IMG/VR virus record: IMGVR_UViG_3300045988_174992
Strand: one strand, 5' to 3'
Length of the DNA stretch: 64,000 bases
Source: a virus
Position numbers and translations under genes: made by a program. The notes below the pieces were generated by a model. It was not told the DNA's origin. It searched no databases and saw only the letters and a list, made by a program, of their open reading frames with translations. Shown here piece after piece: positions 1,203-47,384 of the stretch. Each line of letters opens with the position of its first letter. Within the stretch, counting starts at the first letter, position 1.

Positions 1203-4200
1203 TTAAAATGGACAATCCTCAAACAAATTTTTCTCTTCTACCTTCTTCATGTAAGAAGTATCTTCAGATTTGCTTAAATTCTGTCCAAAGATAGTACCTC
1301 TTAACGAATTAGTATTCTCCATCTTCTCAACAAATCTCTTATTTGTTCCATCCTTTGAAGCATAATCACTATAATCATAACCATCATGAATAACATTCTT
1401 CAATTGACTTTCAATTTGCTCTAATTTGTATTTTGAAGTGTGTGGAAGATTTTCTGGTAACTTGGATTCATATTCCTCTAATGTTTCTTCTTTCTTGTTT
1501 CCATCTTCTATCTTAATGTTTTCTATAAGTTCTTGTAAGAAGAACTGCTTAGTAATGTTGTTCTGATAAATCTCATTTATTTCTTGCTTAGTATTCCAAA
1601 GCATTTCAAATGGTCTTATTGTTATAATTCCATTCTTCAGTTTGGATTGGTCAATTATGATCTTCCATAAGTTGCATATCAAATCATAAATCTTCTCAAG
1701 ATATGCTTTATCTTCAACTACAACATCCTTTACAGAATTTGCATATTTACATGCATAGCTCTTCAACCATTCATCTATTTCTTCTCTTGTACATTTCATT
1801 GTATCATCTGCCCATTTCTGAGCATCTTTTACAAATCTCAATATAGGAAAATCAAGTCTTCGTTTTCTTCTGCTTTGTTCTATTGAAACAAACTTTCTTA
1901 TTCTGTTTAGCTTACTGAAATTTATTCTGTTCTGCTTCTTGTCAATACAATACTTATATATATCTTTGATAGTATCTATATTGTAGTTCTTGTACAATGA
2001 CAATACTATTGGAACATTTCTTTCCATTATCTCTATATCCTTAACATACAAATTATTGTCTTCTCTCATTTCTCTATATTCATCATCTTTGAATATGTTG
2101 TAGTTTCCAGAAATGAGTTCTCGATACAAATCAATATTTCCATCATTTACATGATCCAAGAAATCCAAAGTTTCAACAGTAACTTGATTGAATCTCATGT
2201 GTCTGCATGACTTAAGATAATCTTCAATGAATTCCAATCTGTCTTCTGATATCTCTTTTTCATGGTCAATCACATTTGTAACATATCCATAATACTGAAG
2301 ACCTTCAATCATCATTGGAAGCTGCTTCATATAAGTGGCGTATCTGTCTTCAAACACACTCAACTTATATGTTGTTTCATCAATAAAATACTTGCATTGA
2401 TTTTCATCATACTTTAGATATTTGTTAGTAGAAAGCAATGATTGAATTAATGGGTTGTATTTTGATTCTTCATTGTTTCTCTCTATCATATCATTACATG
2501 TCTTAATCAAATCTCTTGCCAAAAGCAAATCAGCCTGATTCAAACTCAAATCCAATGGTTGAGTATAGTAATAGTTGATAGGCATTCCAACAGAATCTTT
2601 CTTTGGAAGAAACATTTTAAGATACAGATTGTTGTTTCTAAGTCTATTTGCAAACTGTTCAATATCTTGTGGAATCCATTGTTCATTGAAATAAACAGAG
2701 AAACTGAACTTATCACAAATATCCACACCTACTGACAAATAAGTTGTACAGAATACAATATCATTATTTCCAATAGACTTATCAAAATTGATGAGATCCA
2801 TAGATTCTTCACCATAATTTGATTTCTTATAATAGAAACAGTTTATCTGTCTTCCAAACTTCATATCATCAAGATATTGCTGTACTAATCCAGTAAGCTG
2901 ATCATACCAAAGATTTCCTTTATTTGTTGGATAGAGAATCTTCTTACCATCTTTGATATCTTTTGCCATTGAATGAGCCATTTCAATCATCTGTTCTACT
3001 TTTGTTGGACACATGTTCAATTCAAAAGATTTCTCCCTGTAGTCATCCTTTTCAACTTTGATATGTTTGATACCAGGAAAGAATAGCATTTCTCCAGTAG
3101 GAGTACCAGTCATCATGATTATTTTTGCTTTACAATTAGCAAGTCTCTGAATTGTTGGGGCCATCACATCACGATAAGAAGAAGTGAATATCAGATGCGA
3201 CTCATCAAGTACTATATATTCAAATCCTGCGGTATCAAGCTCCATGACATTCAATCTTGAAAACTTATCTATTGTCATTGACATAGATTTGTTTGAAAGC
3301 AAATCTTCAAGTTGTGGTTTCTTATTTCCGTAGTAATAAAGCCAATCTGATGTTACAGATGATGTTTCTACTTTTGCTTTTATTGTTGAAGTAAATGGAA
3401 GTATCAGAAGTGTCTTAGCTTTGAATGCTTTAATCATTTCAGTCTTTCCATAACCAGCACCAGCTTCCAACAATGTGATATGATTCAAATTCTTAAGAAT
3501 ATCATCCTTCAAATCAGAAAGATACTGATCTTTATTCAAATGCAACTTTACTAAGTTGTCATCTTTATCATTAAGAACATCTGTTGGCGACTTGAATATT
3601 TTTTCATCTTCTCTATTTGTAGTTAATGACTTCTGCTCTTCTTTATAGATATTGTCATCTTCTATCTTAATGTTGAATCCATGATATTTGTTCAACTGTT
3701 TGATAGCCCAAACGGAAACTGGCTTATCATGTATGCTTGCAGTCTTAACATCACCTTTAAGCTCTTTATAATCTGTACCATCACAAATGGCAACCATATA
3801 TTGCAATGCCTTATCATATCCATATATAGAAGTAAGAGTGTTTGCAAGTTGCCAACGTTGTGCATGCTTATAATGTCGACGAATGCATTTGCTTGGATCA
3901 ACATCATTTATATCAGAAACTGCAGTTATATCTACACTTTTCTTCTGATTGTTTTCTGTATTGAACCATTCCAACTTAGCAAATATGTTCTTCAAGTCAG
4001 GATGTGATATCCAATCTATTGATTCAAGCCCTGTATCAAATGCCGTTTCAAAGTTAGCATCAAGTCGTAAGTCTATGAAATTAGTGGACAATAATGCTTT
4101 ACTATCTGATGTAATGAATATACCTTGCTGTGGTTTTGCCATCGCCATATCAAGCCAATCAAATATATCATCCTTTGTATATCCAATTTCCTTCATATAC

Positions 4201-4856
4201 TTAGTAAGAACAATATACAAGTAACTGTACTTATGCCTGAAATTACACAGATATTCAATCTTCTTGTTTTCGTCTGTATAAGATATTGGTGTTATCTTTG
4301 TCCAAACATGAAGTGATTTTCCAGATGCTGACTTAGCAACTCCTAAAAACCAATGATATTTGTTGAGGTCTTCAAAAATCTTTAGTTTAAGTTCATTTGC
4401 AATCTTCTTATTCTTAATATCAATATCTATGATCTGAATTCCATTCCACATAGAAAATGACTTTTCACCAATAGGTCGATTGTTAGATGAAACTGAAAAC
4501 ACTACTTTTCTGCTTGCTTTCTCAACATTCTTATATATAGGATCCTGAACAAGCATCCAAACATCTTTCCATGACTGTACAATACCTACTTTATCATAAA
4601 TGGAATTAGTAATCAAACACGATACCATGCCAAGTACAGAATCGAGATATCTGTCTTGCTCTTCTTTAGAACATTCTTTAAAATTAACAGAAGAATATAT
4701 TTCTTGATCTGTATCTTCTTCATTTAATGCTTCATATTCTTTAGACATACAACGAAACTGTTCATAAATATCAGTCATTGCAGTCTTCCCAGAATAGCTT
4801 TCAGCAACCTTCTTGAGGTATTGTGCTATATTTAATGGATTTGAATTGTTACTCAT
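1203..4856 (-). CDS. putative primase-helicase fusion (primase-like N-terminal domain plus SF2 helicase)
   Basis: 1217-aa ORF. Walker A is LLEAGAGYGKTEMI, Walker B/DExH is YIVLDESHLI, motif III is MMTGTPTGE, and a motif VI-like QFANRLRNN is present. The N-terminal segment ...GVAKSASGKSLHVWTKI... resembles VirE/BT4734-type primase-like domains. Confidence 0.6.
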   Translation of the reverse strand: MSNNSNPLNIAQYLKKVAESYSGKTAMTDIYEQFRCMSKEYEALNEEDTDQEIYSSVNFKECSKEEQDRYLDSVLGMVSCLITNSIYDKVGIVQSWKDVWMLVQDPIYKNVEKASRKVVFSVSSNNRPIGEKSFSMWNGIQIIDIDIKNKKIANELKLKIFEDLNKYHWFLGVAKSASGKSLHVWTKITPISYTDENKKIEYLCNFRHKYSYLYIVLTKYMKEIGYTKDDIFDWLDMAMAKPQQGIFITSDSKALLSTNFIDLRLDANFETAFDTGLESIDWISHPDLKNIFAKLEWFNTENNQKKSVDITAVSDINDVDPSKCIRRHYKHAQRWQLANTLTSIYGYDKALQYMVAICDGTDYKELKGDVKTASIHDKPVSVWAIKQLNKYHGFNIKIEDDNIYKEEQKSLTTNREDEKIFKSPTDVLNDKDDNLVKLHLNKDQYLSDLKDDILKNLNHITLLEAGAGYGKTEMIKAFKAKTLLILPFTSTIKAKVETSSVTSDWLYYYGNKKPQLEDLLSNKSMSMTIDKFSRLNVMELDTAGFEYIVLDESHLIFTSSYRDVMAPTIQRLANCKAKIIMMTGTPTGEMLFFPGIKHIKVEKDDYREKSFELNMCPTKVEQMIEMAHSMAKDIKDGKKILYPTNKGNLWYDQLTGLVQQYLDDMKFGRQINCFYYKKSNYGEESMDLINFDKSIGNNDIVFCTTYLSVGVDICDKFSFSVYFNEQWIPQDIEQFANRLRNNNLYLKMFLPKKDSVGMPINYYYTQPLDLSLNQADLLLARDLIKTCNDMIERNNEESKYNPLIQSLLSTNKYLKYDENQCKYFIDETTYKLSVFEDRYATYMKQLPMMIEGLQYYGYVTNVIDHEKEISEDRLEFIEDYLKSCRHMRFNQVTVETLDFLDHVNDGNIDLYRELISGNYNIFKDDEYREMREDNNLYVKDIEIMERNVPIVLSLYKNYNIDTIKDIYKYCIDKKQNRINFSKLNRIRKFVSIEQSRRKRRLDFPILRFVKDAQKWADDTMKCTREEIDEWLKSYACKYANSVKDVVVEDKAYLEKIYDLICNLWKIIIDQSKLKNGIITIRPFEMLWNTKQEINEIYQNNITKQFFLQELIENIKIEDGNKKEETLEEYESKLPENLPHTSKYKLEQIESQLKNVIHDGYDYSDYASKDGTNKRFVEKMENTNSLRGTIFGQNLSKSEDTSYMKKVEEKNLFEDCPF

Positions 4857-5015
4857 CTAAAATTCTATCAATTGTTCTAAAACTTAAAAATCATTATATT
4901 ATGTTATGTTACTTACTTATCTTGTATCAAAATAGTAAATTGAATAAAGCTATTTCAAAATGATTTTAATATAGAATATATTTGTTAAAACAATCAGAAT
5001 ATATAAATAAACATA

Positions 5016-5113
5016 GGATTCTCCAGGATAGCGCCTGGGTCACGAGATTGGCGGAAGATTGGATGTAAGTATAATTTATCAGCTTAAACATTTTTAACGT
5101 CCCTGAAGTGAAA
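5016..5113 (+). repeat. GC-rich conserved intergenic element, copy A (possible structured RNA)
   Basis: GGATTCTCCAGGATAGCGCCTGGGTCACGAGATTGGCGGAAG ... AACGTCCCTGAAGTGAAATTT. Both the 5-prime and 3-prime blocks align with copy C (42142-42235, opposite strand), and the 5-prime block aligns with copy B (31498-31565). Hairpin is CCAGG-N6-CCTGG. Confidence 0.55.
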
Positions 5114-5191
5114 TTTAACATTAATCTTATTTAACAGACAATAAAAATTAATGAAATGACAATTTTTAAATAAGTTAAATGATTGAATTCA

Positions 5192-13234: not shown

Positions 13235-13268
13235 ATATAATATAGAAACAAATAAAGAAATTTCAAAA
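13235..13268 (-). promoter_or_regulatory. host-type promoter; start codon directly abuts the -7 box (leaderless arrangement)
   Basis: Minus strand reads TTTTGAAATTTCTTTATTTGTTTCTATATTATATATG (TTTG-N19-TATATTAT, then ATG of 12926..13234). Confidence 0.6.
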
Positions 13269-25593: not shown

Positions 25594-25628
25594 TTATAAT
25601 ATAGAAAAAGGTTAAGAAATTTCAAAAA
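25594..25628 (-). promoter_or_regulatory. host-type promoter, leaderless arrangement
   Basis: Minus strand reads TTTTGAAATTTCTTAACCTTTTTCTATATTATAAATG. The 14-bp inverted repeat AAAGGTTAAGAAAT / ATTTCTTAACCTTT (about 25607-25620 and 25650-25663) encloses the -33 box. Confidence 0.6.
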
Positions 25629-26848: not shown

Positions 26849-26862
26849 AGTTTTAAAGTTTA

Positions 26863-26927
26863 GTGGACCATGTGAGATTCGAACTCACGTCCAACCGAAG
26901 TTATCGATTGTCAAATCCGTAATGGCC
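26863..26927 (-). ncRNA. 65-nt tRNA-like element (canonical acceptor and T arms, truncated D region)
   Basis: Minus strand reads GGGCCAT-TACGGATTTGAC-AATCG-ATAACTT-CGGTT-GGAC-GTGAG-TTCGAAT-CTCAC-ATGGTCC-A. It has a 7-bp acceptor stem (one G.U), a perfect GTTCGAATC T-loop, and a 5-bp stem with a 7-nt loop (U33 present, anticodon position AAC). Only 12 nt stand where the D arm should be. Confidence 0.45.
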
Positions 26928-27006
26928 CAAGTTATGTTTATTAATTTTAGTTCTTGAACAGAACTGAAAGTGATGTTCATTATTTATATTTTCGATATAG
27001 AAAAGT

Positions 27007-29102: not shown

Positions 29103-31058
29103 TTATGCATCTTCAACTACAGCATCTTCTACTTTTACATCATCTGATTTTTCTTCTTTCTTATCATTGTCATGATTTGACGCATTCTCTTCCTTTGCAT
29201 TTCCTTCCTGTGTCTCTGTCTTATCAGTACCATCTTGGCTCTTTTGCTTATCGGCATAGAATTTCTCAACTATTGGGTTCCAAACTTCTTCCAACTCTTT
29301 CTTAGCTTCCATGATCTTATCATGGTCTTTGTCCTTCAATACAACAACTGATTCCAATGCATCAAGTTTTTCTTGTGCTTTAGCTCTATCCTCATCTGAT
29401 GTAGCTTTGACAAAATCTTCATTGACAATCATCTCTTTTGTATTGAACATGTAACGTTCTGCATCATTGATGTCATTAGTTTCTTTTGTCTTCTTTTCAT
29501 CAGCTTCCTTGAACTTCTCAGCATCTTCCTTGATTGCTTTGATTTCCTCATCAGTAAGTGTATTGTTACTGATTGTAATGTGCTGTTCTTTATTAGTACC
29601 AAGATCCTTAGCAGTAACAGTAACGATACCATTTGCATCAATATCAAAGCAAACTTCAATCTGTGGTACCCCAGCTTTTGCCATAGGAATTCCATCCAAT
29701 CTGAATCTACCAATAGACTTATTACCAGAAGCAATCTTACGTTCACCTTGCAATACATTTACCTCAACCATAGGTTGGTTATCAATAGATGTGGTGAATA
29801 CTTGCTTCTTCTGACATGGAATTGTTGTATTTGCTTCAACAATAGGTGCCATCATATCTCCCTTAGTTTCAATACCTAATGACAATGGAGTAACATCAAG
29901 AAGCAACAAATCACCAGTAGAATTACCAGCAAGAATATCAGCTTGCTTAGCAGCACCTAATGCAACTGCTTCATCTGGATTTACAGATTGATTCAATGGC
30001 TTATTGAATTCCTTCTTCAATGCCTCTTGCAATGATGGAATACGAGTTGTACCACCTACAAGTAAGATACAATCAATATCATCATACTTCTTACCAGCTT
30101 TCTCAACAGCAACCTTTGCTTTTTCAACTGTGCGATCATTCAAATTCTTTACAAGAGATTCAAACTTAGCACGAGAAAGTGTCATAGCAAGATTCAATGG
30201 TGCACCATCTTTCATAGAAATATATGGAAGATTAATCTCTGTCTGTGTTGAACTTGACAATTCAATCTTTGCTTTTTCTGCAGATTCTACTACACGAGCA
30301 TAAGCCATATTATCCTTTGTCAAATCAACATCATCTGACTTCTTAAATTCATCAACTACCCACTTTACAATAGCATCATCATAGTCTTTACCTCCAAGAT
30401 ATACATCACCATTTGATGCAAGTACTTCAGCCATACCATCTGACAACTCAAGGACAGAAACATCAACAGTACCAGTACCTGAATCCACTACTACAACAGT
30501 CTTGTCTTTCTTGTCTTCCATCAAGTTAGCTGCCAATGCTGCTGATGTTGGTTCATTAATCACACGAAGTACATTCAATCCAGCAAGCTCACCAGCTGTC
30601 TTAGTTGCTGTACGAGCAGCATCACCAAACCAAGCTGGTACTGTAATTACTGCATCTTTGATTTCCTCACCAACAAAATCTTCAGCAATTTTTTTCATCT
30701 TACCAACAATCATAGATGAAATCTGTTCTGGAGAATATTCCTTATCATCAATCTTAACATAAGGCTTACCAGACTTATTTACAATATCATAAGTTGCAAG
30801 CTTTTGCATCTTCTTTACATTTTCATCATTGAAATCAGCACCCATCAAACGCTTTACAAAACTGATAGTGTTCTTTGGATTTGTTACCATTGCACGCTTT
30901 GCGGCATTACCAATCTTCACTTCATCCTTTGTAATCTGTACTACAGATGGTGTTGTTCTTGTTCCTTCTTCATTTACTACTACAACTGGTTTACCTGCCT
31001 CAATTACTGCTACACACGACATACCCGTGCCTAGATCTAGGCCTAAAACTTTACTCAT
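29103..31058 (-). CDS. dnaK: DnaK (Hsp70) chaperone
   Basis: 651 aa. GLDLGTGMSCVAV, DAVITVPAWF, VIDSGTGTVDVS-type and LVGGTTRIPS motifs. A substrate-binding domain and acidic C-terminus are present. Confidence 0.95.
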   Translation of the reverse strand: MSKVLGLDLGTGMSCVAVIEAGKPVVVVNEEGTRTTPSVVQITKDEVKIGNAAKRAMVTNPKNTISFVKRLMGADFNDENVKKMQKLATYDIVNKSGKPYVKIDDKEYSPEQISSMIVGKMKKIAEDFVGEEIKDAVITVPAWFGDAARTATKTAGELAGLNVLRVINEPTSAALAANLMEDKKDKTVVVVDSGTGTVDVSVLELSDGMAEVLASNGDVYLGGKDYDDAIVKWVVDEFKKSDDVDLTKDNMAYARVVESAEKAKIELSSSTQTEINLPYISMKDGAPLNLAMTLSRAKFESLVKNLNDRTVEKAKVAVEKAGKKYDDIDCILLVGGTTRIPSLQEALKKEFNKPLNQSVNPDEAVALGAAKQADILAGNSTGDLLLLDVTPLSLGIETKGDMMAPIVEANTTIPCQKKQVFTTSIDNQPMVEVNVLQGERKIASGNKSIGRFRLDGIPMAKAGVPQIEVCFDIDANGIVTVTAKDLGTNKEQHITISNNTLTDEEIKAIKEDAEKFKEADEKKTKETNDINDAERYMFNTKEMIVNEDFVKATSDEDRAKAQEKLDALESVVVLKDKDHDKIMEAKKELEEVWNPIVEKFYADKQKSQDGTDKTETQEGNAKEENASNHDNDKKEEKSDDVKVEDAVVEDA

Positions 31059-31173: not shown

Positions 31174-31455
31174 TCACTCTGACACTTCAATCTTATTGAC
31201 AAAATAATTTGCCGTCAACGTAAACTTAACAATCACTTTAGTATCACCAATATCTAATGAAATCATCCACGGTGCAAATTCAACATCTAATTTATCAGGT
31301 CCATCAACCTTCTTTACATCAAACTTACCACCAGTAACATCGGTTACTTTCTCAATAAGAGATTTGACACTACCAATCTTACAATTCAACAATGCTTGTC
31401 CTAAAAGAACTTCAACAATACGCGAAGCTCCACTCTGTTTCTTTAATTGTTTCAT
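31174..31455 (-). CDS. hypothetical protein (93 aa)
   Basis: ORF downstream of element copy B. Confidence 0.55.
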   Translation of the reverse strand: MKQLKKQSGASRIVEVLLGQALLNCKIGSVKSLIEKVTDVTGGKFDVKKVDGPDKLDVEFAPWMISLDIGDTKVIVKFTLTANYFVNKIEVSE

Positions 31456-31497
31456 AAAAATTCATATTTTAAAGTTTTACTGATATATGATATAATA

Positions 31498-31565
31498 TTC
31501 ACCAGGATGGCGGCTGGGATTGACAGGGAGCGGAAAAATATACTTCAGTATATTCTATCAGCCTA
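31498..31565 (+). repeat. GC-rich conserved intergenic element, copy B
   Basis: TTCACCAGGATGGCGGCTGGGATTGACAGGGAGCGGAAAAATATACTTCAGTATATT aligns with copies A and C. It contains the AT hairpin AATATAC-TTCA-GTATATT. Confidence 0.5.
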
Positions 31566-31856
31566 AGACTTTTTAGTTGTTCCTGGTGACTTTTTTGTAT
31601 TCTTATTTTTTCTTCTTGTATACATCTTCTGAAATGCATGAACTTCTTCTGGTTCTACATAATCAACTATACGATATTCATTCTTCAACTTTGCTTTTAT
31701 TCTCTTATCATTGTCTTTATAGTCTGAAATTTTCTGCTCAAGAAAAGCTTTATCTTCATTAGGACCTTCTGACAACATGCAAAACCATTTTGTCCATTCA
31801 ACACCAGTTCTTGTATGATACTGATATCTTGATTCAATGTTATATAACTTACTCAT
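31563..31856 (-). CDS. hypothetical basic protein (97 aa)
   Basis: ORF with a Lys-rich C-terminus. Confidence 0.55.
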   Translation of the reverse strand: MSKLYNIESRYQYHTRTGVEWTKWFCMLSEGPNEDKAFLEQKISDYKDNDKRIKAKLKNEYRIVDYVEPEEVHAFQKMYTRRKNKNTKKSPGTTKKS

Positions 31857-35682: not shown

Positions 35683-35719
35683 CATGAATAATATAGAAAA
35701 AGTGCATAAAATTTCAAAA
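35683..35719 (-). promoter_or_regulatory. host-type promoter
   Basis: Minus strand reads TTTTGAAATTTTATGCACTTTTTCTATATTATTCATG, 19 nt before the ATG at 35663. Confidence 0.6.
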
Positions 35720-36612: not shown

Positions 36613-37656
36613 TTAAATTAGATTTTGTTCTACATGCTTTAATCGTTTAGAAACTTCATCTTGTTTACCTTCATTCATATTGGAAACATCAGTACTAAGG
36701 TAACCAGTGACCATTCTTAGTTCCTCTATGTTATGGCTTCCACAATGTGGGCATGTTCCATTGAAATCACCTTTGCTATGACAATCTCGGCAGTAATCCA
36801 GTGGAAAATGCAAAGAGAAATATGGAAGATCCTTATCCATTGCATAAACCACTAATTCTTCACAAGCATCTATATTGTTAGTTGCTGAACTTGGCATTTC
36901 AACATAAGTGATGCATCCAGCATTACTGAACTTATCTAATTCACTTTCAATATCAATTTTCTTGAAGCAATCAATATCTTTATATACAGGTACATGAGTT
37001 GAATTTGTAAAGAATTTGTTATCATTATCAGTAACACCTTTAACATCATTACCATATTGTGCTCTGAATTTTGTCATTGCTGTCTTACAAAGTGATTCTC
37101 CTGGAGTCAAATATACTCCAAAATTCAACTTATCATTTTTCTTGAATTCTGCACATCTGTCATTGAATAGCTTTTCAATTCTCTTTCCAAGTTCAAGTCC
37201 TTGAGCTTCTGTCTGGTCACACCCAATCAATATTTGCAATGTTTCTGCTAATCCAATTTGTCCGATAGCTAATGTACCATGTTTCATAGCAGATACAGGA
37301 CCTTCTTCATGGATATATCCTACCATTGTATTGTTTGTCCACATGAATGGAGCAGACTTAGAATTCTGGCTGCAAATCAAAGTAAATCTTTCAAGAAGCA
37401 TTTCTCTTGCTTCATGGATCTTCTTATCAAGCAACTTCATGAATGTTTCTACTACATCTTTGCTACCAGATTCTTTTGCCATCATAGCTAAAGTAGGCAT
37501 AATGATAGTAACAGGGCAAATGTTTCCACGACCATCTTTTTGGTTTGCAGATAACATCCAATTGTCTTGTACTTTACCAGTTTCTGCTATCTTTTTAAAT
37601 ATTTCAAAGAAATAATTTGAATCACAATTGATATCATAACCATTATAAGTTCTACA
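36613..37656 (-). CDS. nrdD: anaerobic ribonucleoside-triphosphate reductase, exon 2
   Basis: Begins CRTYNGYD... after the intron. C-terminal Zn site CRDCHSKGDFNGTCPHCGS and glycyl-radical motif RMVTGYLS. Confidence 0.85.
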   Translation of the reverse strand, partial: CRTYNGYDINCDSNYFFEIFKKIAETGKVQDNWMLSANQKDGRGNICPVTIIMPTLAMMAKESGSKDVVETFMKLLDKKIHEAREMLLERFTLICSQNSKSAPFMWTNNTMVGYIHEEGPVSAMKHGTLAIGQIGLAETLQILIGCDQTEAQGLELGKRIEKLFNDRCAEFKKNDKLNFGVYLTPGESLCKTAMTKFRAQYGNDVKGVTDNDNKFFTNSTHVPVYKDIDCFKKIDIESELDKFSNAGCITYVEMPSSATNNIDACEELVVYAMDKDLPYFSLHFPLDYCRDCHSKGDFNGTCPHCGSHNIEELRMVTGYLSTDVSNMNEGKQDEVSKRLKHVEQNLI

Positions 37657-37953
37657 CATCTTATCTGTTATTACTAACAGGACTGACTATATGTTCCTTA
37701 TTATATAAATTGTATTTTCTATATATTAAGGCCTCACGCTCCGAATTGGTGCTTATCTCCAATTCTACTCCCTTACACTCATCAGGGATAGTCGATACAC
37801 CTTTATGACAATTAAAATTGTCAATTTAGCACGGATCTCATCCATCTATTATAAATGGACCTAACCGTTAGCAGCAGCTTATTTATTTTCTTATGCTGCC
37901 ACACCCATTAAGCATGGTTCGAGAGGTTTTAGATGGGCTGTAGTATTGCACTT
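37657..37953 (-). ncRNA. group I self-splicing intron (297 nt, no ORF) in nrdD
   Basis: Exon 1 ends ATGGGT (U at the splice site). The internal guide GCCCAT (37933-37938) pairs with exon AUGGGU, giving the U.G pair. The intron ends ...GATAAGATG with a terminal G. Joining gives VMSTMG-CRTYNGYD, matching the conserved NrdD ..PMGCR.. motif. Many hairpins are present, including the GNRA-capped CUGUUA-GUAA-UAACAG (37665-37680). Confidence 0.8.
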
Positions 37954-39408
37954 ACCCATCGTGCTCATCACTTCATATCTAGTGAATTTCTCTGCTGGTT
38001 TTACTTTAATTTCCCAACTATCTTCAATAGAGTCATAATGACCTTCTAATGACAAATAATCTTCATAATCTGGATGTTCTGACAACCATTTAGCAAATGC
38101 ACAGTATGTTGATTTGGAGAAATTGAGCAAATTCTTCAATGCACGATTCTTTTGCTCTCTATCAAATATATTACCTTTCCAGTTAGTACTCCAATCAACA
38201 TTACAATAATTAGGATAATCACGTTGTGTTGTAGATTTCAATGCTAATCTGAACAAATCATAGTTAGGACCAGGATTATTTTTAGAGCCATGAATTTCTT
38301 TACTGTATTGGAATATGCAACATGGGAATATAGCAGTACGATGATACTTACCAGTACCTTCCAATGTCATATTGATTAATGCTCTAATTATTTCACGACC
38401 TTCCTTTAAAGTACATGTACCATAATTGATGCTAGAAAATGGCAGCTGGGCACCACTACGAGATTGCAAACTATTTAGATTATGACTCATTGCTTCAGTA
38501 GCTTGACTTAATTCCTTCAATGTAGAATTCCAAGCCTTCTTCCATATCATTTTCTTCAATGGTTTCAACAATCCAACACCGGTATAAATTCTATCATCAA
38601 CACTTATATGTTTGATTGATTTAGGATCAATGTTAGGTTTAGCCCACTTCATCAATGGAATTCCATCACACCAGTTTTTGTAATGCTTAAAGAAACTCTT
38701 ACGGAAATATGGTATCATTGACCAATCAAGATGTGATGCAGAAATACCACCAAACTGTTCAAGTGATTGTACTTGGAAATTTACAGCTATCAATTGGAAT
38801 GCCGTACTTAATGAATTAGCAGGACGAATATCACACTGTTTCAATGTAATACCATGTTCAAGAAGAATATCAATCGGATCAGTTAAACAATTATGCTGTC
38901 CAACTGCAAAATTTGATAAATCATGCTGATAAACCATATTTCCTTCATGATTCTTTCTTGCCATCTTCGACATGTTGTTTTTCAAAGCATAATCTTTACA
39001 AACAACTGCTCCAGCTTCACCAATACGGCCACTAAAGCTGTTTTCATCAAGATTGGCATTCTGGTTTACTACATTCTTGGCATAAAGTTTTGTAGCAATA
39101 TTCTTAGCAAGCTTTGTATTTGATTCTCGATACCTAGATCTCTCTTCTCGGTAAATGATGAATTGTTCTGCTGCTTCATTCTCTCCTACCGACATGAGGA
39201 AATCTCTCAAGAAATCTTGTACAGTCTCAATATCAACTACATCTTCTTTCATAGTTTCTAACCAAGCTCTTATTGATTCTGTAAACTTACTAATTAGTCC
39301 ATCAGGAACTTCTTTCTTCACTCCATTCTTATATACTTTTTCAAGTGCATGAATTGGTTTGTTAAGATCAAAGCCTTGGACTTTACCATCTCTTTTCTTT
39401 ACTTTCAT
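37954..39408 (-). CDS. nrdD: anaerobic ribonucleoside-triphosphate reductase, exon 1 (ATP-cone plus core)
   Basis: N-terminal ATP-cone-like MKVKKRDGKVQGFDLNKP. The track ORF reads 20 codons into the intron before a stop. Confidence 0.85.
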
Positions 39409-42087: not shown

Positions 42088-42124
42088 CAGATATAAGATA
42101 GAAAAATCTTGACTGATTTCAAAA
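42088..42124 (-). promoter_or_regulatory. host-type promoter
   Basis: Minus strand reads TTTTGAAATCAGTCAAGATTTTTCTATCTTATATCTG. Confidence 0.55.
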
Positions 42125-42141
42125 TTTTATTTAAATAAAAA

Positions 42142-42235
42142 GTCACACAGGGATGTTAAATCTATTTCAGGTATATAAATATACTCCTAAACAATTTTCC
42201 GCTCCCTGTGTGACCTAGGCGCTTTCCTAGAGAAC
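42142..42235 (-). repeat. GC-rich conserved intergenic element, copy C (possible structured RNA)
   Basis: Minus strand reads GTTCTCTAGGAAAGCGCCTAGGTCACACAGGGAGCGGAAAA...AACATCCCTGTGTGACTTTTT. The 12-bp stem GTCACACAGGGA/TCCCTGTGTGAC (42203-42214 with 42142-42153) closes a roughly 50-nt loop. The small hairpin is CTAGG-N6-CCTAG. Confidence 0.55.
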
Positions 42236-42236
42236 A

Positions 42237-42740
42237 TCATTTTCTCTTCTTTGGTTGTAATTTTCTATTAACAGGTTTATAAGTACAATTTGTCTTCATC
42301 TTCTTAAGCATTGCAACTTCAACACGTAAGGTCTTTACTTCTTTCATTAATGCAACATTGTCATTATGCAATGAATTGAGTTTAGAAAGTACAACTCTGA
42401 AATTAGCTTTTACAATAGAATCAGAACTCATGCTATTGTGATTGTCATTATTAGTAATGACTGTGGTAATGTTGTTCAGTTTCTTTACACTACATCTACA
42501 GTTAGGATCATGAACAACAAAACTTTCAGTATTGTCATTCTCATCAGATTTTACAATATTGATGAACTTATGGTTTTGATAGTCAAATTCCATCACTTTA
42601 CCTTCTGATGTCAAGGTATCACCTACTATGGCAATATCATTTGATTTACCAGTACATTTGTTGACAACAAGCATGCTTCCTGTAAGAAACAATACAAATG
42701 TTATAGCTGCTATAATAATACTTTTAATATTCACTTTCAT
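42237..42740 (-). CDS. membrane-anchored or lipoprotein-like coiled-coil protein (spanin candidate)
   Basis: N-terminal signal/TM IIIAAITFVLFLTGSMLVVNKC. C-terminal heptad-like LMKEVKTLRVEVAMLKKMK. Sits directly downstream of the endolysin. Confidence 0.35.
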   Translation of the reverse strand: MKVNIKSIIIAAITFVLFLTGSMLVVNKCTGKSNDIAIVGDTLTSEGKVMEFDYQNHKFINIVKSDENDNTESFVVHDPNCRCSVKKLNNITTVITNNDNHNSMSSDSIVKANFRVVLSKLNSLHNDNVALMKEVKTLRVEVAMLKKMKTNCTYKPVNRKLQPKKRK

Positions 42741-46281: not shown

Positions 46282-46320
46282 CATTTATAATATAGTCAAC
46301 CAATATTATGATTTTCAAAA
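46282..46320 (-). promoter_or_regulatory. host-type promoter of the gp32-like gene (-33 box lies inside the upstream ORF end)
   Basis: Minus strand reads TTTTGAAAATCATAATATTGGTTGACTATATTATAAATG (TTTG-N21-TATATTAT). It leaves a leader of about 80 nt. Confidence 0.5.
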
Positions 46321-47384
46321 TAATCAATAAAAAATTCTTTTAATTCTTTTAGAGACCAAAATTCTTTATAATTTAGATTTTCTTCTTTTGCTTTATTTCT
46401 TTTTTCAACATCCCTTTTAGTCCAAGTTTTTATTGCATTATCATAGTACTTTGTTCTTTTTGTTTTCCATTGTTCTAACTTAACTTGATCTTTTATTGAG
46501 CTTGGGTCAAATGGGTGTTTTCCATGGGTCCAGTGGAAGTTGCATTCTATAAACATATCTAAGTCTTCAATATAAAAATCACAATTAAATGGATATCTTG
46601 AACCTCCATTAAATTGTCTAGTTACATCTATATATTGACTTAAAAATTCATATACTTTATCTTCTTCTTTTGATGTATTGAAAGTGTTGTTTTTCCTTTT
46701 TGTATTAATGATTTTATTTTTAATCTCTCCAATATTATTTAGGAAAGATTTCCTAAATTTTGATGTTTTTGAATAATTATCTATTCCATATTTTTTCAAA
46801 CAAGACTCTTTAGATTTTTCTCTAAATTCTTTTGTTTTCATGTATTCATCAACACCATATTTTTTCAAACAAGACTCTTTAGATTTTTCTCTAAATTCTT
46901 TTGTTTTCATGTATTCATCAACACCATATTTTTTCAAACAAGTTTGTTTATATTTTTCTCTATTATTAAAAAATTTTACTCCATATTTTTCTAAACATGT
47001 TTCTTTAATTCTTTTTTGTGATTCTGGATTCTTAGAATTATGGGTATATCCGGTTTTATTGAAATATGTATTTTGTTTCTTTTTTATTATATCTTTATCA
47101 TGTTGAACACATTCTTTACTACAATAGTCATTATAAAACTTATATTTTCTAAACTTTACTGCAACGGGTTTACCACATACTTTACATTTTGGATGTACAC
47201 TAATATTCCAACAAATTCTTAATATAGACTCTTCAAATGATAAAGAATCATCATATCTATCTACAATATATTTATATATTTCTGATTCTTTATCATTTGA
47301 GTATTTTCTTTTCATCTTAGAAGAAACAAATCCATTTTTTGTAAGAAAAATTTTCTTTATCTTTTCATCATTGATTTCTTCCAT
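46296..47384 (-). CDS. free-standing homing-endonuclease-like protein (Zn finger, KYG repeats, PD-(D/E)xK-like C-terminus)
   Basis: CKVCGKPV...CSKEC finger. Repeated ..CLKKYGV(D/K).. modules. C-terminal NCDFYIEDLDMFIECNFHWTHG resembles the cDFy....IE.dG..H nuclease core. Inserted next to the gp32-like gene, as seg/mob genes are in T4. Confidence 0.4.
   Translation of the reverse strand: MEEINDEKIKKIFLTKNGFVSSKMKRKYSNDKESEIYKYIVDRYDDSLSFEESILRICWNISVHPKCKVCGKPVAVKFRKYKFYNDYCSKECVQHDKDIIKKKQNTYFNKTGYTHNSKNPESQKRIKETCLEKYGVKFFNNREKYKQTCLKKYGVDEYMKTKEFREKSKESCLKKYGVDEYMKTKEFREKSKESCLKKYGIDNYSKTSKFRKSFLNNIGEIKNKIINTKRKNNTFNTSKEEDKVYEFLSQYIDVTRQFNGGSRYPFNCDFYIEDLDMFIECNFHWTHGKHPFDPSSIKDQVKLEQWKTKRTKYYDNAIKTWTKRDVEKRNKAKEENLNYKEFWSLKELKEFFIDYFENHNIG
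46786..46942. repeat. perfect 69-bp tandem duplication (2 copies plus a 19-nt partial third) inside the endonuclease-like gene
   Basis: 46786-46854 is identical to 46855-46923, and the first 19 nt repeat again at 46924. The unit encodes the duplicated peptide KTKEFREKSKESCLKKYGVDEYM. Confidence 0.9.

Follow-up and report, generated by a model that had tools for sequence, protein, structure and literature searches.

The window, that is, the whole 64,000-nucleotide stretch of phage DNA analysed here, has a G+C content of 28–35% and codes for an HSP70, a split NrdD and a DEAD-box helicase-like protein of 1217 amino acids; a search for close relatives among cultured phages (INPHARED) returned no similar DNA. 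It contains exactly three copies (A, B and C) of a hairpin element of about 100 nt, here named E1, and these copies are not equivalent: C is the textbook example, B is stand-alone and A is the most degenerate. The focal copy, A, lies in a divergent region, as a previous sequence-only reading had it, between the gene for the 1217-aa helicase-like protein (start at 4856, reverse strand) and a gene for a 288-aa protein, and is located 71 nt upstream of gene 5192. It has the following features:

5018–5116, forward strand: full element of copy A (covariance model 75.5 bits, E 1e-15; nhmmer 86.8 bits)
5023–5038, forward strand: small 5' hairpin P1, CCAGG-ATAGCG-CCTGG, read directly and predicted in the MFE fold
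5040–5111, forward strand: long-hairpin core with TCAC...GTGA outer pairs, from sequence reading and folding
5051–5056, forward strand: GCGGAA of the core, from sequence reading
5068–5082, forward strand: apical block AGTATAATTTATCAG of the core, from sequence reading
5048–5075, forward strand: sigma-70-like TTGGCG-N16-TATAAT inside the core, a promoter-like site with 10/12 matches

Copy A lacks the stable GC-rich stem of an intrinsic terminator, with a folding z-score of -0.1 for the whole element and also for the core alone. Its sigma-70-like site is made up of the diverged middle segment and the apical TATAAT and reads towards gene 5192, so that copy A may, as a conjecture, have been co-opted as promoter DNA or have decayed into it. 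According to the sequence-only reading, copy A would, if transcribed rightward, open the 5' leader of gene 5192; this putative role would be atypical of the family, most members of which are found at gene 3' ends.

Copy B is antisense to both of its neighbours, 31174–31455 and 31563–31856 (both on the reverse strand), and is preceded by a promoter-like site:

31497–31594, forward strand: copy B (covariance model 73.7–75.9 bits)
31468–31496, forward strand: promoter-like TTTAAA-N17-TATAAT plus upstream TG, extending to the base before copy B (scan, 10/12 matches)
31580–31596, forward strand: 3' segment TTCCTGGTGAC, which pairs with the 5' TCACCAGGA at 31499–31507 and is followed by a T6 run (MFE -31.4 kcal/mol, z -2.7)

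The T6 run of this copy occupies positions 31591–31596 and the closing stem comprises nine pairs (TCACCAGGA/TCCTGGTGA), giving, at this z-score, the stable GC-rich stem of an intrinsic terminator. The 3' block TTCCTGGTGAC is complementary to the 5' end of B and not to its middle segment. The small hairpin of B has four pairs only, and its innermost pair is G/G. Judging from this layout, copy B looks like a stand-alone unit composed of its own promoter-like site, a short structured RNA and a terminator-like U-run.

Copy C begins 2 nt past the TGA stop codon (42239–42237) of a 167-aa gene (42237–42740, reverse strand) and includes or adjoins the following features:

42138–42235, reverse strand: copy C (covariance model 100.1 bits, E 1e-21)
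42215–42230, reverse strand: small hairpin P1, CTAGG-AAAGCG-CCTAG, with a U-A pair, from sequence reading
42137–42214, reverse strand: long hairpin, in which GTCACACAGGGA is paired with TCCCTGTGTGAC (12 perfect pairs), then T5 at 42141–42137, from folding
42095–42122, reverse strand: promoter-like TTGAAA-N16-TATCTT of the next gene, just downstream of copy C, a case of the recurrent phage motif TTTGAAAT...TTCTATMTTAT

The fold of copy C is very stable (MFE -37.6 kcal/mol, z -5.7; core alone, z -7.0), with the GC-rich stem of an intrinsic terminator, and the long hairpin appears to have the form of such a terminator with a large conserved interior.

The three GC-rich spots picked out by the sequence-only reading proved to be homologous copies of one conserved structured element, on the strands given by that reading, and every string quoted there was verified by reading the sequence. 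A degenerate pattern built from the reader's three sequences, TTCWCYAGGANNGCGNCTRGG, matches the window only at 5019–5039 (forward), 31498–31518 (forward) and 42214–42234 (reverse), and none of 100 dinucleotide-shuffled windows contained a match. Both nhmmer and a covariance model (the latter also with filters off) returned the same three full-length copies and no other in the 64 kb. All three copies are intergenic, as had been reported, and copy B overlaps the last 11 codons of 31563–31856 (reverse strand). The 3' block previously recognised as shared is real, but the similarity extends beyond the quoted blocks: A, B and C can be aligned over about 98 nt with zero gaps and about 76% column identity.

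The suggested comparison with Rfam was also performed, and E1 matches no family. Rfam 15 (4227 covariance models, including those for riboswitches, ribozymes, sRNAs, CRISPR repeats and 6S RNA) gave no gathering-level match in the window; around each copy, at E values of up to 10, it gave chance miRNA, snoRNA or sRNA matches only, far below threshold. No description of E1 was found in literature searches, and ARAGORN detected no tRNA in the window or in about 390 kb of related loci. Other putative RNAs were observed elsewhere in the window:

26861–26928, reverse strand: mini-tmRNA of 68 nt, covering the Rfam tmRNA model end to end (45 bits versus a gathering score of 47, E 1e-16)
37664–37923, reverse strand: probable group I intron interrupting nrdD (E 6e-6, below the gathering score)

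The entire 310-nt middle of the model is missing from the mini-tmRNA, the acceptor stem of which has a G3.U70 pair, and this RNA may be a version of tmRNA with the tRNA-like domain only. tmRNAs have been described in huge phages (PMC7162821).

In IMG/VR, a pattern scan located E1 in eight to nine contigs of 167–294 kb, all from one IMG data set; human-gut metagenome contigs and two MAG bins with the label Romboutsia contained further copies. The main clade has 63 distinct E1 copies, at about 10–12 conserved positions per genome, in human-gut phage contigs of about 170–295 kb. The window corresponds to roughly 40–105 kb of such a genome, and the remaining types lie outside it. The "Romboutsia" label is probably a binning artefact; a Shine–Dalgarno-like motif is present upstream of 1 of 46 long ORFs and the HSP70 of the window is closest (58%) to the HSP70s of Prevotella Lak megaphages, and the paucity of such motifs, together with this affinity, suggests that the phage host is probably a member of Bacteroidota.

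There are about a dozen E1 paralogue types, each with a fixed genomic position. They are about 25–30% divergent, with no indels other than those of a few 5'-end variants. The metagenome matches obtained in a search for divergent copies all belonged to this same clade. A distant clade was reached from IMGVR_UViG_3300001525_000092, in which a GC-rich element lies downstream of a homologue of the 167-aa gene (60% identity); that sample yielded eight copies, distributed over three contigs. All 7–8 related genomes examined have E1 at positions A, B and C, and the distant clade has it at B and C too (about 60% protein identity), the C-type position corresponding to loci L098 and L187. The B-type arrangement is kept at L162, where the element is antisense between two small genes and has a T-run, and the promoter-like site abutting the 5' end of B is present in both clades. 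In relatives at 57–72% identity, located via flanking proteins, copy A is absent, and there is no recognisable empty-site signature. Recent local duplication, put forward as a possible explanation for the similarity of the three copies, is excluded by the retention of E1 positions across genomes, two of them across clades. Orthologous copies are nevertheless no more conserved than the flanking genes (83–98% versus 88–100%).

In seven of the eight types that have a neighbouring upstream gene, E1 is co-oriented with that gene and starts 0–14 nt after its stop codon. The types located off gene 3' ends are A (divergent intergenic), H (abutting the start of a divergent gene) and B (antisense); in types B and H, a TATAAT hexamer ends one base before the conserved TTC. 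Downstream from E1, there is a U-run, a separate canonical terminator (type E) or one to at least six tandem units of a second element, E2. The tail is followed by the recurrent promoter-like block TTTGAAAT-N15-TTCTATATTAT and then by the next gene; relatives retain this block downstream of C, F/G, J and M. In B, C, F, M and some G copies, the stem is directly followed, on the same strand, by a U-run, which both clades retain at the B and C positions. No U-run is present in types A, D, E, H, J and K, and termination cannot, therefore, be the common function of E1. Ordinary hairpin-plus-T terminators also exist in this genome. No partner protein gene consistently adjoins E1, and a search around the copies revealed no transposase.

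E2 is a 39-nt unit with the hairpin AGTTCT-TGAAC-AGAACT, the loop of which (TGAAC) is complementary to GTTCA in the tail GATGTTCATT, making a pseudoknot possible. The stem of E2 covaries in the distant clade, and the unit occurs in tandem one to six or more times, with differences in number and orientation between close relatives. The window has a copy of this unit:

26954–26981: E2 copy, adjoining the tmRNA-like RNA

The core of E1 is a long hairpin of 70–75 nt, and the small 5' hairpin is optional. In the long hairpin, the outer stem is GC-rich and leads to an internal loop or bulge at an invariant GCG(G)AA; next come a short A-U stem, an inner stem that is variable, and an AU-rich apical loop that always contains a -10-like hexamer (TATAAT, TATATT or TATAAA). 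Nineteen of 21 representative cores, from both clades, fold into one long hairpin each, with z-scores of -2.6 to -12. L021 (type F), L111 (type J) and L139 have perfect stems of 18–21 bp; in other copies, including C, the GCG(G)/AAC loop breaks the stem. The 5' and middle segments, TTCACCAGGA and GTCACACAGGGA, form a direct repeat, of which the 3' segment is an inverted copy, and alternative pairings are possible in both clades, the 3' segment pairing with either the 5' or the middle segment.

The comparison of the two clades provides the clearest view of what is maintained in E1. The outer stem is GCCGCTGGCGGCC/GGCCGCCAGCGGC in the distant clade and CACACAGGGA/TCCCTGTGTG in the main clade, and the inner stem of the distant clade is GCTC/GGGC; the order of the helices is the same in both clades, despite entirely different stem sequences. 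By contrast, the unpaired blocks are kept: GCG(G)AAA, GAGATATAAATTAT (AGTATAWTTYTATCAG in the main clade) and TTTT(C/A)AA. A covariance model trained on the main clade only scores the distant-clade copies weakly (16–22 bits, E 0.02–0.5). The replacement of whole stems with persistence of the loops and architecture has the form of a product of selection on a folded single strand, as judged from these alignments. Compensatory changes are also observed within the main clade: G34-C86 to U-A in L021, and A48-U55 to G-C in the B orthologues. A single consensus structure is paired in 73% of cells, and its covariation score is 0.171, versus 0.145 for shuffled alignments and 0.08–0.11 for slid partners; this modest covariation reflects differences in pairing register between paralogue types, and the close relationship of the genomes, in which there have been few independent events. 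An all-against-all comparison of alignment columns gave no usable covariation signal, owing to the small number of independent lineages.

The compensatory evidence cited by the sequence-only reading came from the small hairpin P1. The change that it described, from C-G to T-A on both arms (CCAGG-N6-CCTGG in A and CTAGG-N6-CCTAG in C), is real, but the strong part of the evidence lies in the long downstream hairpin, which that reading knew as the shared 3' block. Far from being the key structure, P1 is the least essential part of E1. Its 5' arm is replaced by TTCYCCTGTTAAGCG, which pairs with the preceding CAGGG instead, in at least eight main-clade copies, and the hairpin is wholly missing in two of the eight distant-clade copies (L124 and L147). 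Among 50 aligned sequences, the P1 pair is U-A in two and U.G in 18. Orthologues of copy C mostly have CTAGG...CCTGG (U.G), making visible a path from C-G through U.G to U-A, of which copy C of the window is the last step; this path is tolerated only in an RNA of the E1 strand.

The nature of the acting molecule had been left open between a conserved RNA helix and a dyad protein site. The helix is favoured, and a double-stranded dyad site is disfavoured by the path just described, by the bias towards G.U pairs and by the location of the U-runs. Proposed pairs include 151 G.U versus 52 A.C combinations, where base composition predicts a ratio of about 1.2:1, and the U-runs lie on E1's own strand. 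A dyad site would be expected to show symmetry equal on both strands and conserved half-sites, and neither was found. An RNA of the annotated strand appears to fit better than such a site, because of the G.U excess, the own-strand U-runs and the conservation between clades of complementarity but not of half-sites.

E1 is, thus, a genuine structured family, absent from Rfam and from the literature found, that most probably acts as RNA at transcript 3' ends. It is proposed, tentatively and with slightly less than even confidence, that this element is transcribed as a 3'-end module, with roles in the termination, stabilisation and possibly processing of transcripts. At most positions, E1 would be transcribed as the tail of the upstream gene's mRNA, and at a few, including that of copy B, from its own promoter. 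Where a U-run follows the outer stem (B and C), the two would constitute a factor-independent terminator. Everywhere, the element would provide a very stable 3' hairpin capping the transcript against 3' exonucleases. Any perfect duplex of 18–21 bp is an expected substrate of RNase III, and in the copies with 18–21 perfect pairs the stem would be cut by this enzyme. The net effect would be transcription units with defined and stabilised 3' ends, and the release of a discrete RNA of about 75–100 nt. The conserved loops would add an extra recognition step, presumably by a protein or an RNase. The family itself, its architecture, positions and orientations, the compensatory replacement of stems between clades and the U-runs are observed, whereas transcription, termination, stabilisation or processing, and any function of the loops, are inferred. 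Weighing against this reading are the missing U-run of several types, the existence of ordinary terminators in the same genome, which makes the need for a special class less obvious, the location of A, B and H away from gene 3' ends, the modest covariation and a conservation of orthologous copies no higher than that of the flanking genes.

The persistence of unpaired blocks where stems have been replaced, and the constant presence of a -10-like hexamer in the apical loop, would also be expected of a family of trans-acting small RNAs, in which the apical and GCGGAA loops would bind a protein or target RNAs and the 3'-UTR location would simply be an economical mode of expression. In variants of this explanation, E1 might sequester, as a decoy or sponge, an RNA-binding protein of the host or phage, an RNase or a defence factor, or might mimic the promoter -10 element. 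Stand-alone antisense or divergent copies with a promoter-like site and a terminator, present in both clades (B and L162; H, L124, L147 and L175), are consistent with such a role, as is the repeated pairing of E1 with tandem E2 pseudoknot units, reminiscent of repeat-RNA decoys. The lack of a partner protein gene consistently next to E1 argues against it, however, as do the number of sequences resembling the apical block in the window (18 versus 25 expected, with a pattern that was one base off) and the presence of ten to twelve diverging paralogues, which would be unusual for a seed-pairing sRNA. Overall, a trans-acting function seems rather doubtful. A more specific version, in which E1 and tandem E2 together form a new class of trans-acting phage RNA expressed from its own promoters and from mRNA 3' ends, is unlikely; such an RNA could, for example, serve as a decoy for a host RNA-binding defence or decay factor, or could engage RNA polymerase or a sigma factor, the latter being considered because the conserved single-stranded loop bears a -10-like hexamer.

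Alternatively, E1 and also E2 could be palindromic repeats, either selfish or neutral, comparable to REP, BOX, ERIC and Correia elements; E1 would then be a MITE-like unit that has spread across intergenic regions, its structure being a by-product of its terminal inverted repeats. E1 does, indeed, occur in multiple copies, all intergenic, as an imperfect palindrome with 12–21 bp of terminal inverted repeat around an AT-rich centre, it evolves no more slowly than its flanks, and its modular arrangement with zero to six or more E2 units resembles the pneumococcal boxA-boxB(n) layout; E2 itself displays insertion, copy-number and orientation polymorphism among close relatives. E1 displays no presence/absence polymorphism with target-site duplication, and the one flanking repeat noted, a possible 7-bp CAAAT(A/T)T around the L124 copy, is doubtful. 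The occupation of A, B and C in every related genome, and of B and C even in the distant clade, gives no sign of recent mobility, and no transposase lies nearby. Orientation is biased relative to the upstream gene, and compensatory stem replacement with persistent loops is unlike the neutral decay of a dead MITE. A selfish origin of the observed pattern is, thus, judged improbable.

It is very unlikely that E1 acts as DNA, as a composite protein site or extruded cruciform (an operator, a promoter, or a site of replication, priming or recombination) built from a TCAC-N-CAGGGA-like word. The direct repetition of TTCACCAGGA and GTCACACAGGGA with an inverted copy in the 3' segment, the ungapped paralogue spacing of about 98 bp, suggestive of fixed phasing, the sigma-70-like TTGGCG-N16-TATAAT of copy A and the stability of the folds of both forward and reverse strands could all be accommodated by such a site. 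However, the word itself is lost in the distant clade, where complementarity alone is kept, pointing to pairing rather than to sequence-specific recognition by a protein. Furthermore, both the tolerance of G.U (151 versus 52, and at P1 column pair 7-20) and the U-runs are restricted to one strand, words of the CCWGG type are nothing unusual in the rest of the window, and some ten origins or operators of the size of E1 per genome would be unprecedented.

Least probable of all, to the point of being close to dismissal, is a cis-regulatory switch (riboswitch, attenuator or antiterminator target) or a self-cleaving ribozyme at the sharp 5' boundary just past stop codons, an idea to which the alternative 3'-segment pairings of both clades and the invariant unpaired nucleotides lend some support, but against which stand the absence of any Rfam riboswitch or ribozyme match at E values of up to 10, the location of E1 mostly downstream of genes rather than upstream, a putative antiterminator helix of 4 bp versus a terminator of 12 bp, a topology that does not fit HDV-like or twister ribozymes by hand mapping and the lack of the tRNA association expected of theta ribozymes.

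Several other identities were considered and rejected. A riboswitch or 5'-leader attenuator would be compatible with the placement of only A and a few others, as most copies follow a gene, face the next gene convergently or are antisense. A translation-coupled attenuator, in which a ribosome at the stop codon masks the 5' arm, would rely on the 4-bp alternative helix in competition with the 12-bp terminator. Theta ribozymes are adjacent to tRNA genes; no tRNA is found near E1, and Rfam gave no match to any self-cleaving ribozyme at E values of up to 10. The order of segments, mapped by hand, does not fit HDV-like, permuted HDV or twister ribozymes, there being no HDV double-pseudoknot order, and a K-turn at GCG-GA lacks the required G.A partners on the non-bulged strand. 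Protein coding, or a recoded C-terminal extension, was considered because every type has a frame that stays open for at least 15 codons from TTC, and indels are absent among the paralogues; yet the stops fall at different places, TAG interrupts the frame in L021, L023 and L093, and the frame relative to the upstream stop varies by type. All three stop codons are in normal use in this phage (46 TAA, 11 TGA and 6 TAG), contrary to recoding. A DGR template or variable repeat is not compatible with differences that are not confined to adenines or with the non-coding nature of the copies. The likeness to a CRISPR repeat or solitary repeat unit is superficial, with no array and no family match, and restriction-related clustering of CCWGG is contradicted by the lack of CCWGG depletion elsewhere in the window.

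To our knowledge, very few huge gut phages have been cultured, and hardly any of their non-coding content has been annotated. As an easily modelled RNA motif outside Rfam, E1 marks about 10–12 intergenic positions per genome and endures across clades by compensatory evolution, and its covariance model can be used now for annotating related metagenomic contigs and for mining metatranscriptomes for strand and ends. If E1 does define transcript 3' ends, it could be used to map the transcription units of such phages; recruitment of a factor by the conserved loops would make it part of a new phage RNA–protein system.

E1 can be compared with several known systems. Like intrinsic terminators and 3'-UTR-derived sRNAs, copy C has a GC-rich stem and a U-run directly after a stop codon, and copy B resembles bacterial sRNA units in combining a promoter-like site, a short structured RNA and a putative terminator. 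Unlike the 3–8-nt loop of an intrinsic terminator, the "loop" of E1 is a conserved structured domain of 45–50 nt, which is why a simple terminator scan misses the element; in addition, the same module recurs at about 10–12 positions, with half the types lacking a U-run.

With BOX (boxA-boxB(n)-boxC), REP/BIME, ERIC and Correia elements, E1 shares the form of a multi-copy intergenic imperfect palindrome associated with a variable number of a short unit. These palindromes are transcribed; RNase III cleaves Correia hairpins, and REP elements have a stabilising effect on the upstream mRNA. E1 differs from BOX, REP and Correia elements in being found in phage genomes at fixed positions with no insertion polymorphism, in having loops kept across clades whilst its stems covary, and in lacking a clear target-site duplication or transposase.

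Phage T7 (R0.3–R1.3 and others) and the Bacillus phage SP82 have RNase III processing hairpins between genes. Sites of this type call for about two turns (at least 20 bp) of double-stranded RNA, interrupted or not by an internal loop, in an intercistronic region that is transcribed. E1 has no sequence similarity to the T7 or SP82 sites; moreover, unlike them, E1 often has a U-run and would terminate transcription rather than being read through, some of its copies are stand-alone or antisense, and it has an extra 5' hairpin and an AU-rich apical loop. As in T7 and SP82, there are several paralogous copies per phage genome, similar to each other in sequence, intergenic and co-oriented with transcription, and each copy is a hairpin of 60–100 nt in which an internal loop separates a lower from an upper stem. 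Cleavage at the T7 and SP82 sites leaves a protective 3' hairpin on the upstream mRNA.

Sequence appears to be exchanged among the copies of E1, the hairpin element of about 100 nt, either by gene conversion or by template switching. This is suggested by an alternative 5' end, TTCYCCTGTTAAGCG, which recurs in several different paralogue types (copies sorted by fixed genomic position) within certain genomes. It was found at the following loci:

Main-clade loci L049, L089, L104, L110, L111, L112 and L130: E1 copies with the 5' end TTCYCCTGTTAAGCG

In copies with this end, a mini-hairpin lying upstream, CAGGG-TTC-CCCTG, has the conserved TTC of E1 as its loop; its arms are TAGGG/CCCTA in L112.

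Upstream of copy A, at about 4962-4976, lies a palindrome, AATATAGAATATATT, containing the promoter-like motif of the helicase gene on the minus strand. Three related genomes (L010, L035 and L037) have a different palindrome, GGTGTGGGATACACC, in its place, and this exchange could be either a compensatory change in a hairpin or the swapping of an operator. In a single relative, L050 (IMGVR_UViG_3300045988_171958), copy A is separated from the 288-aa gene downstream by an insertion of about 1 kb (at about 1960-3000 of that locus) with an ORF, which may be a mobile endonuclease-type gene. The promoter-like motif itself is recurrent, with 32 sites in the window at no more than one mismatch, versus 9.4 expected:

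13237-13247, 25596-25606, 35688-35698, 42093-42103 and 4966-4976, all minus strand: example sites of TTCTATATTAT

These sites lie mainly on the coding strand, 10-30 nt 5' of start codons, often with TTTGAAAT about 15 nt further upstream, and a terminator-like hairpin often immediately adjoins them (e.g. 35744-35698 and 36606-36577).

A Shine-Dalgarno-like motif is missing upstream of 45 of the 46 long ORFs in the window, and the HSP70 gene (29103-31058, minus strand) has its nearest relatives in the HSP70s of Prevotella Lak megaphages (58% amino-acid identity); the host is, thus, probably a member of Bacteroidota. At odds with such a host, near-identical contigs have been placed in the MAGs CALFLM01 and CALESE01, both of which carry the label 'uncultured Romboutsia sp.'

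Two features of the window matched RNA families in Rfam, both with less than the gathering score:

37664-37923, minus strand: probable group I intron (Intron_gpI, 30.2 bits, gathering score 50, E 5.9e-6)
26861-26928, minus strand: tmRNA-like RNA of 68 nt (RF00023, E 1.2e-16, 45.0 bits, gathering score 47)

The intron probably splits nrdD (anaerobic ribonucleotide reductase) into two ORFs, 37891-39408 and 36613-37659, the first of which matches the Pfam NRDD profile only at positions 2-251 of 562. Elsewhere, a 69-nt unit is repeated in tandem (46786-46962; 2.6 copies, 96% identity) within or adjoining ORF 46296-47384 on the minus strand.

The 68-nt RNA looks like a mini-tmRNA consisting of the tRNA-like domain only: it aligns from the first to the last position of the model, the entire 310-nt middle of which (tag ORF and pseudoknots) is absent. 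It has a G3.U70 pair within its acceptor stem (GGGCCAU/AUGGUCC), a T arm reading GUGAG-UUCGAAU-CUCAC and a promoter-like TTTCTATATCG upstream on the same strand. ARAGORN made no call for this RNA.

E1 is often followed by one to six or more tandem copies of a second repeated element, E2, one copy of which is in the window:

26954-26981, plus strand: E2

Its 39-nt unit comprises a hairpin, AGTTCT-TGAAC-AGAACT, and a tail, GAAAGWGATGTTCATT. The tail contains GTTCA, the complement of the loop sequence TGAAC, so that a pseudoknot could form. The stem covaries, with CTCT/AGAG in the distant clade. Tandem arrays occur at L024, L120, L123, L127 and L131, and the distant clade has E2 at L098 and L124. 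Close relatives differ in both copy number and orientation. E2 calls to mind arrays of type III antitoxin or boxB-like repeats.
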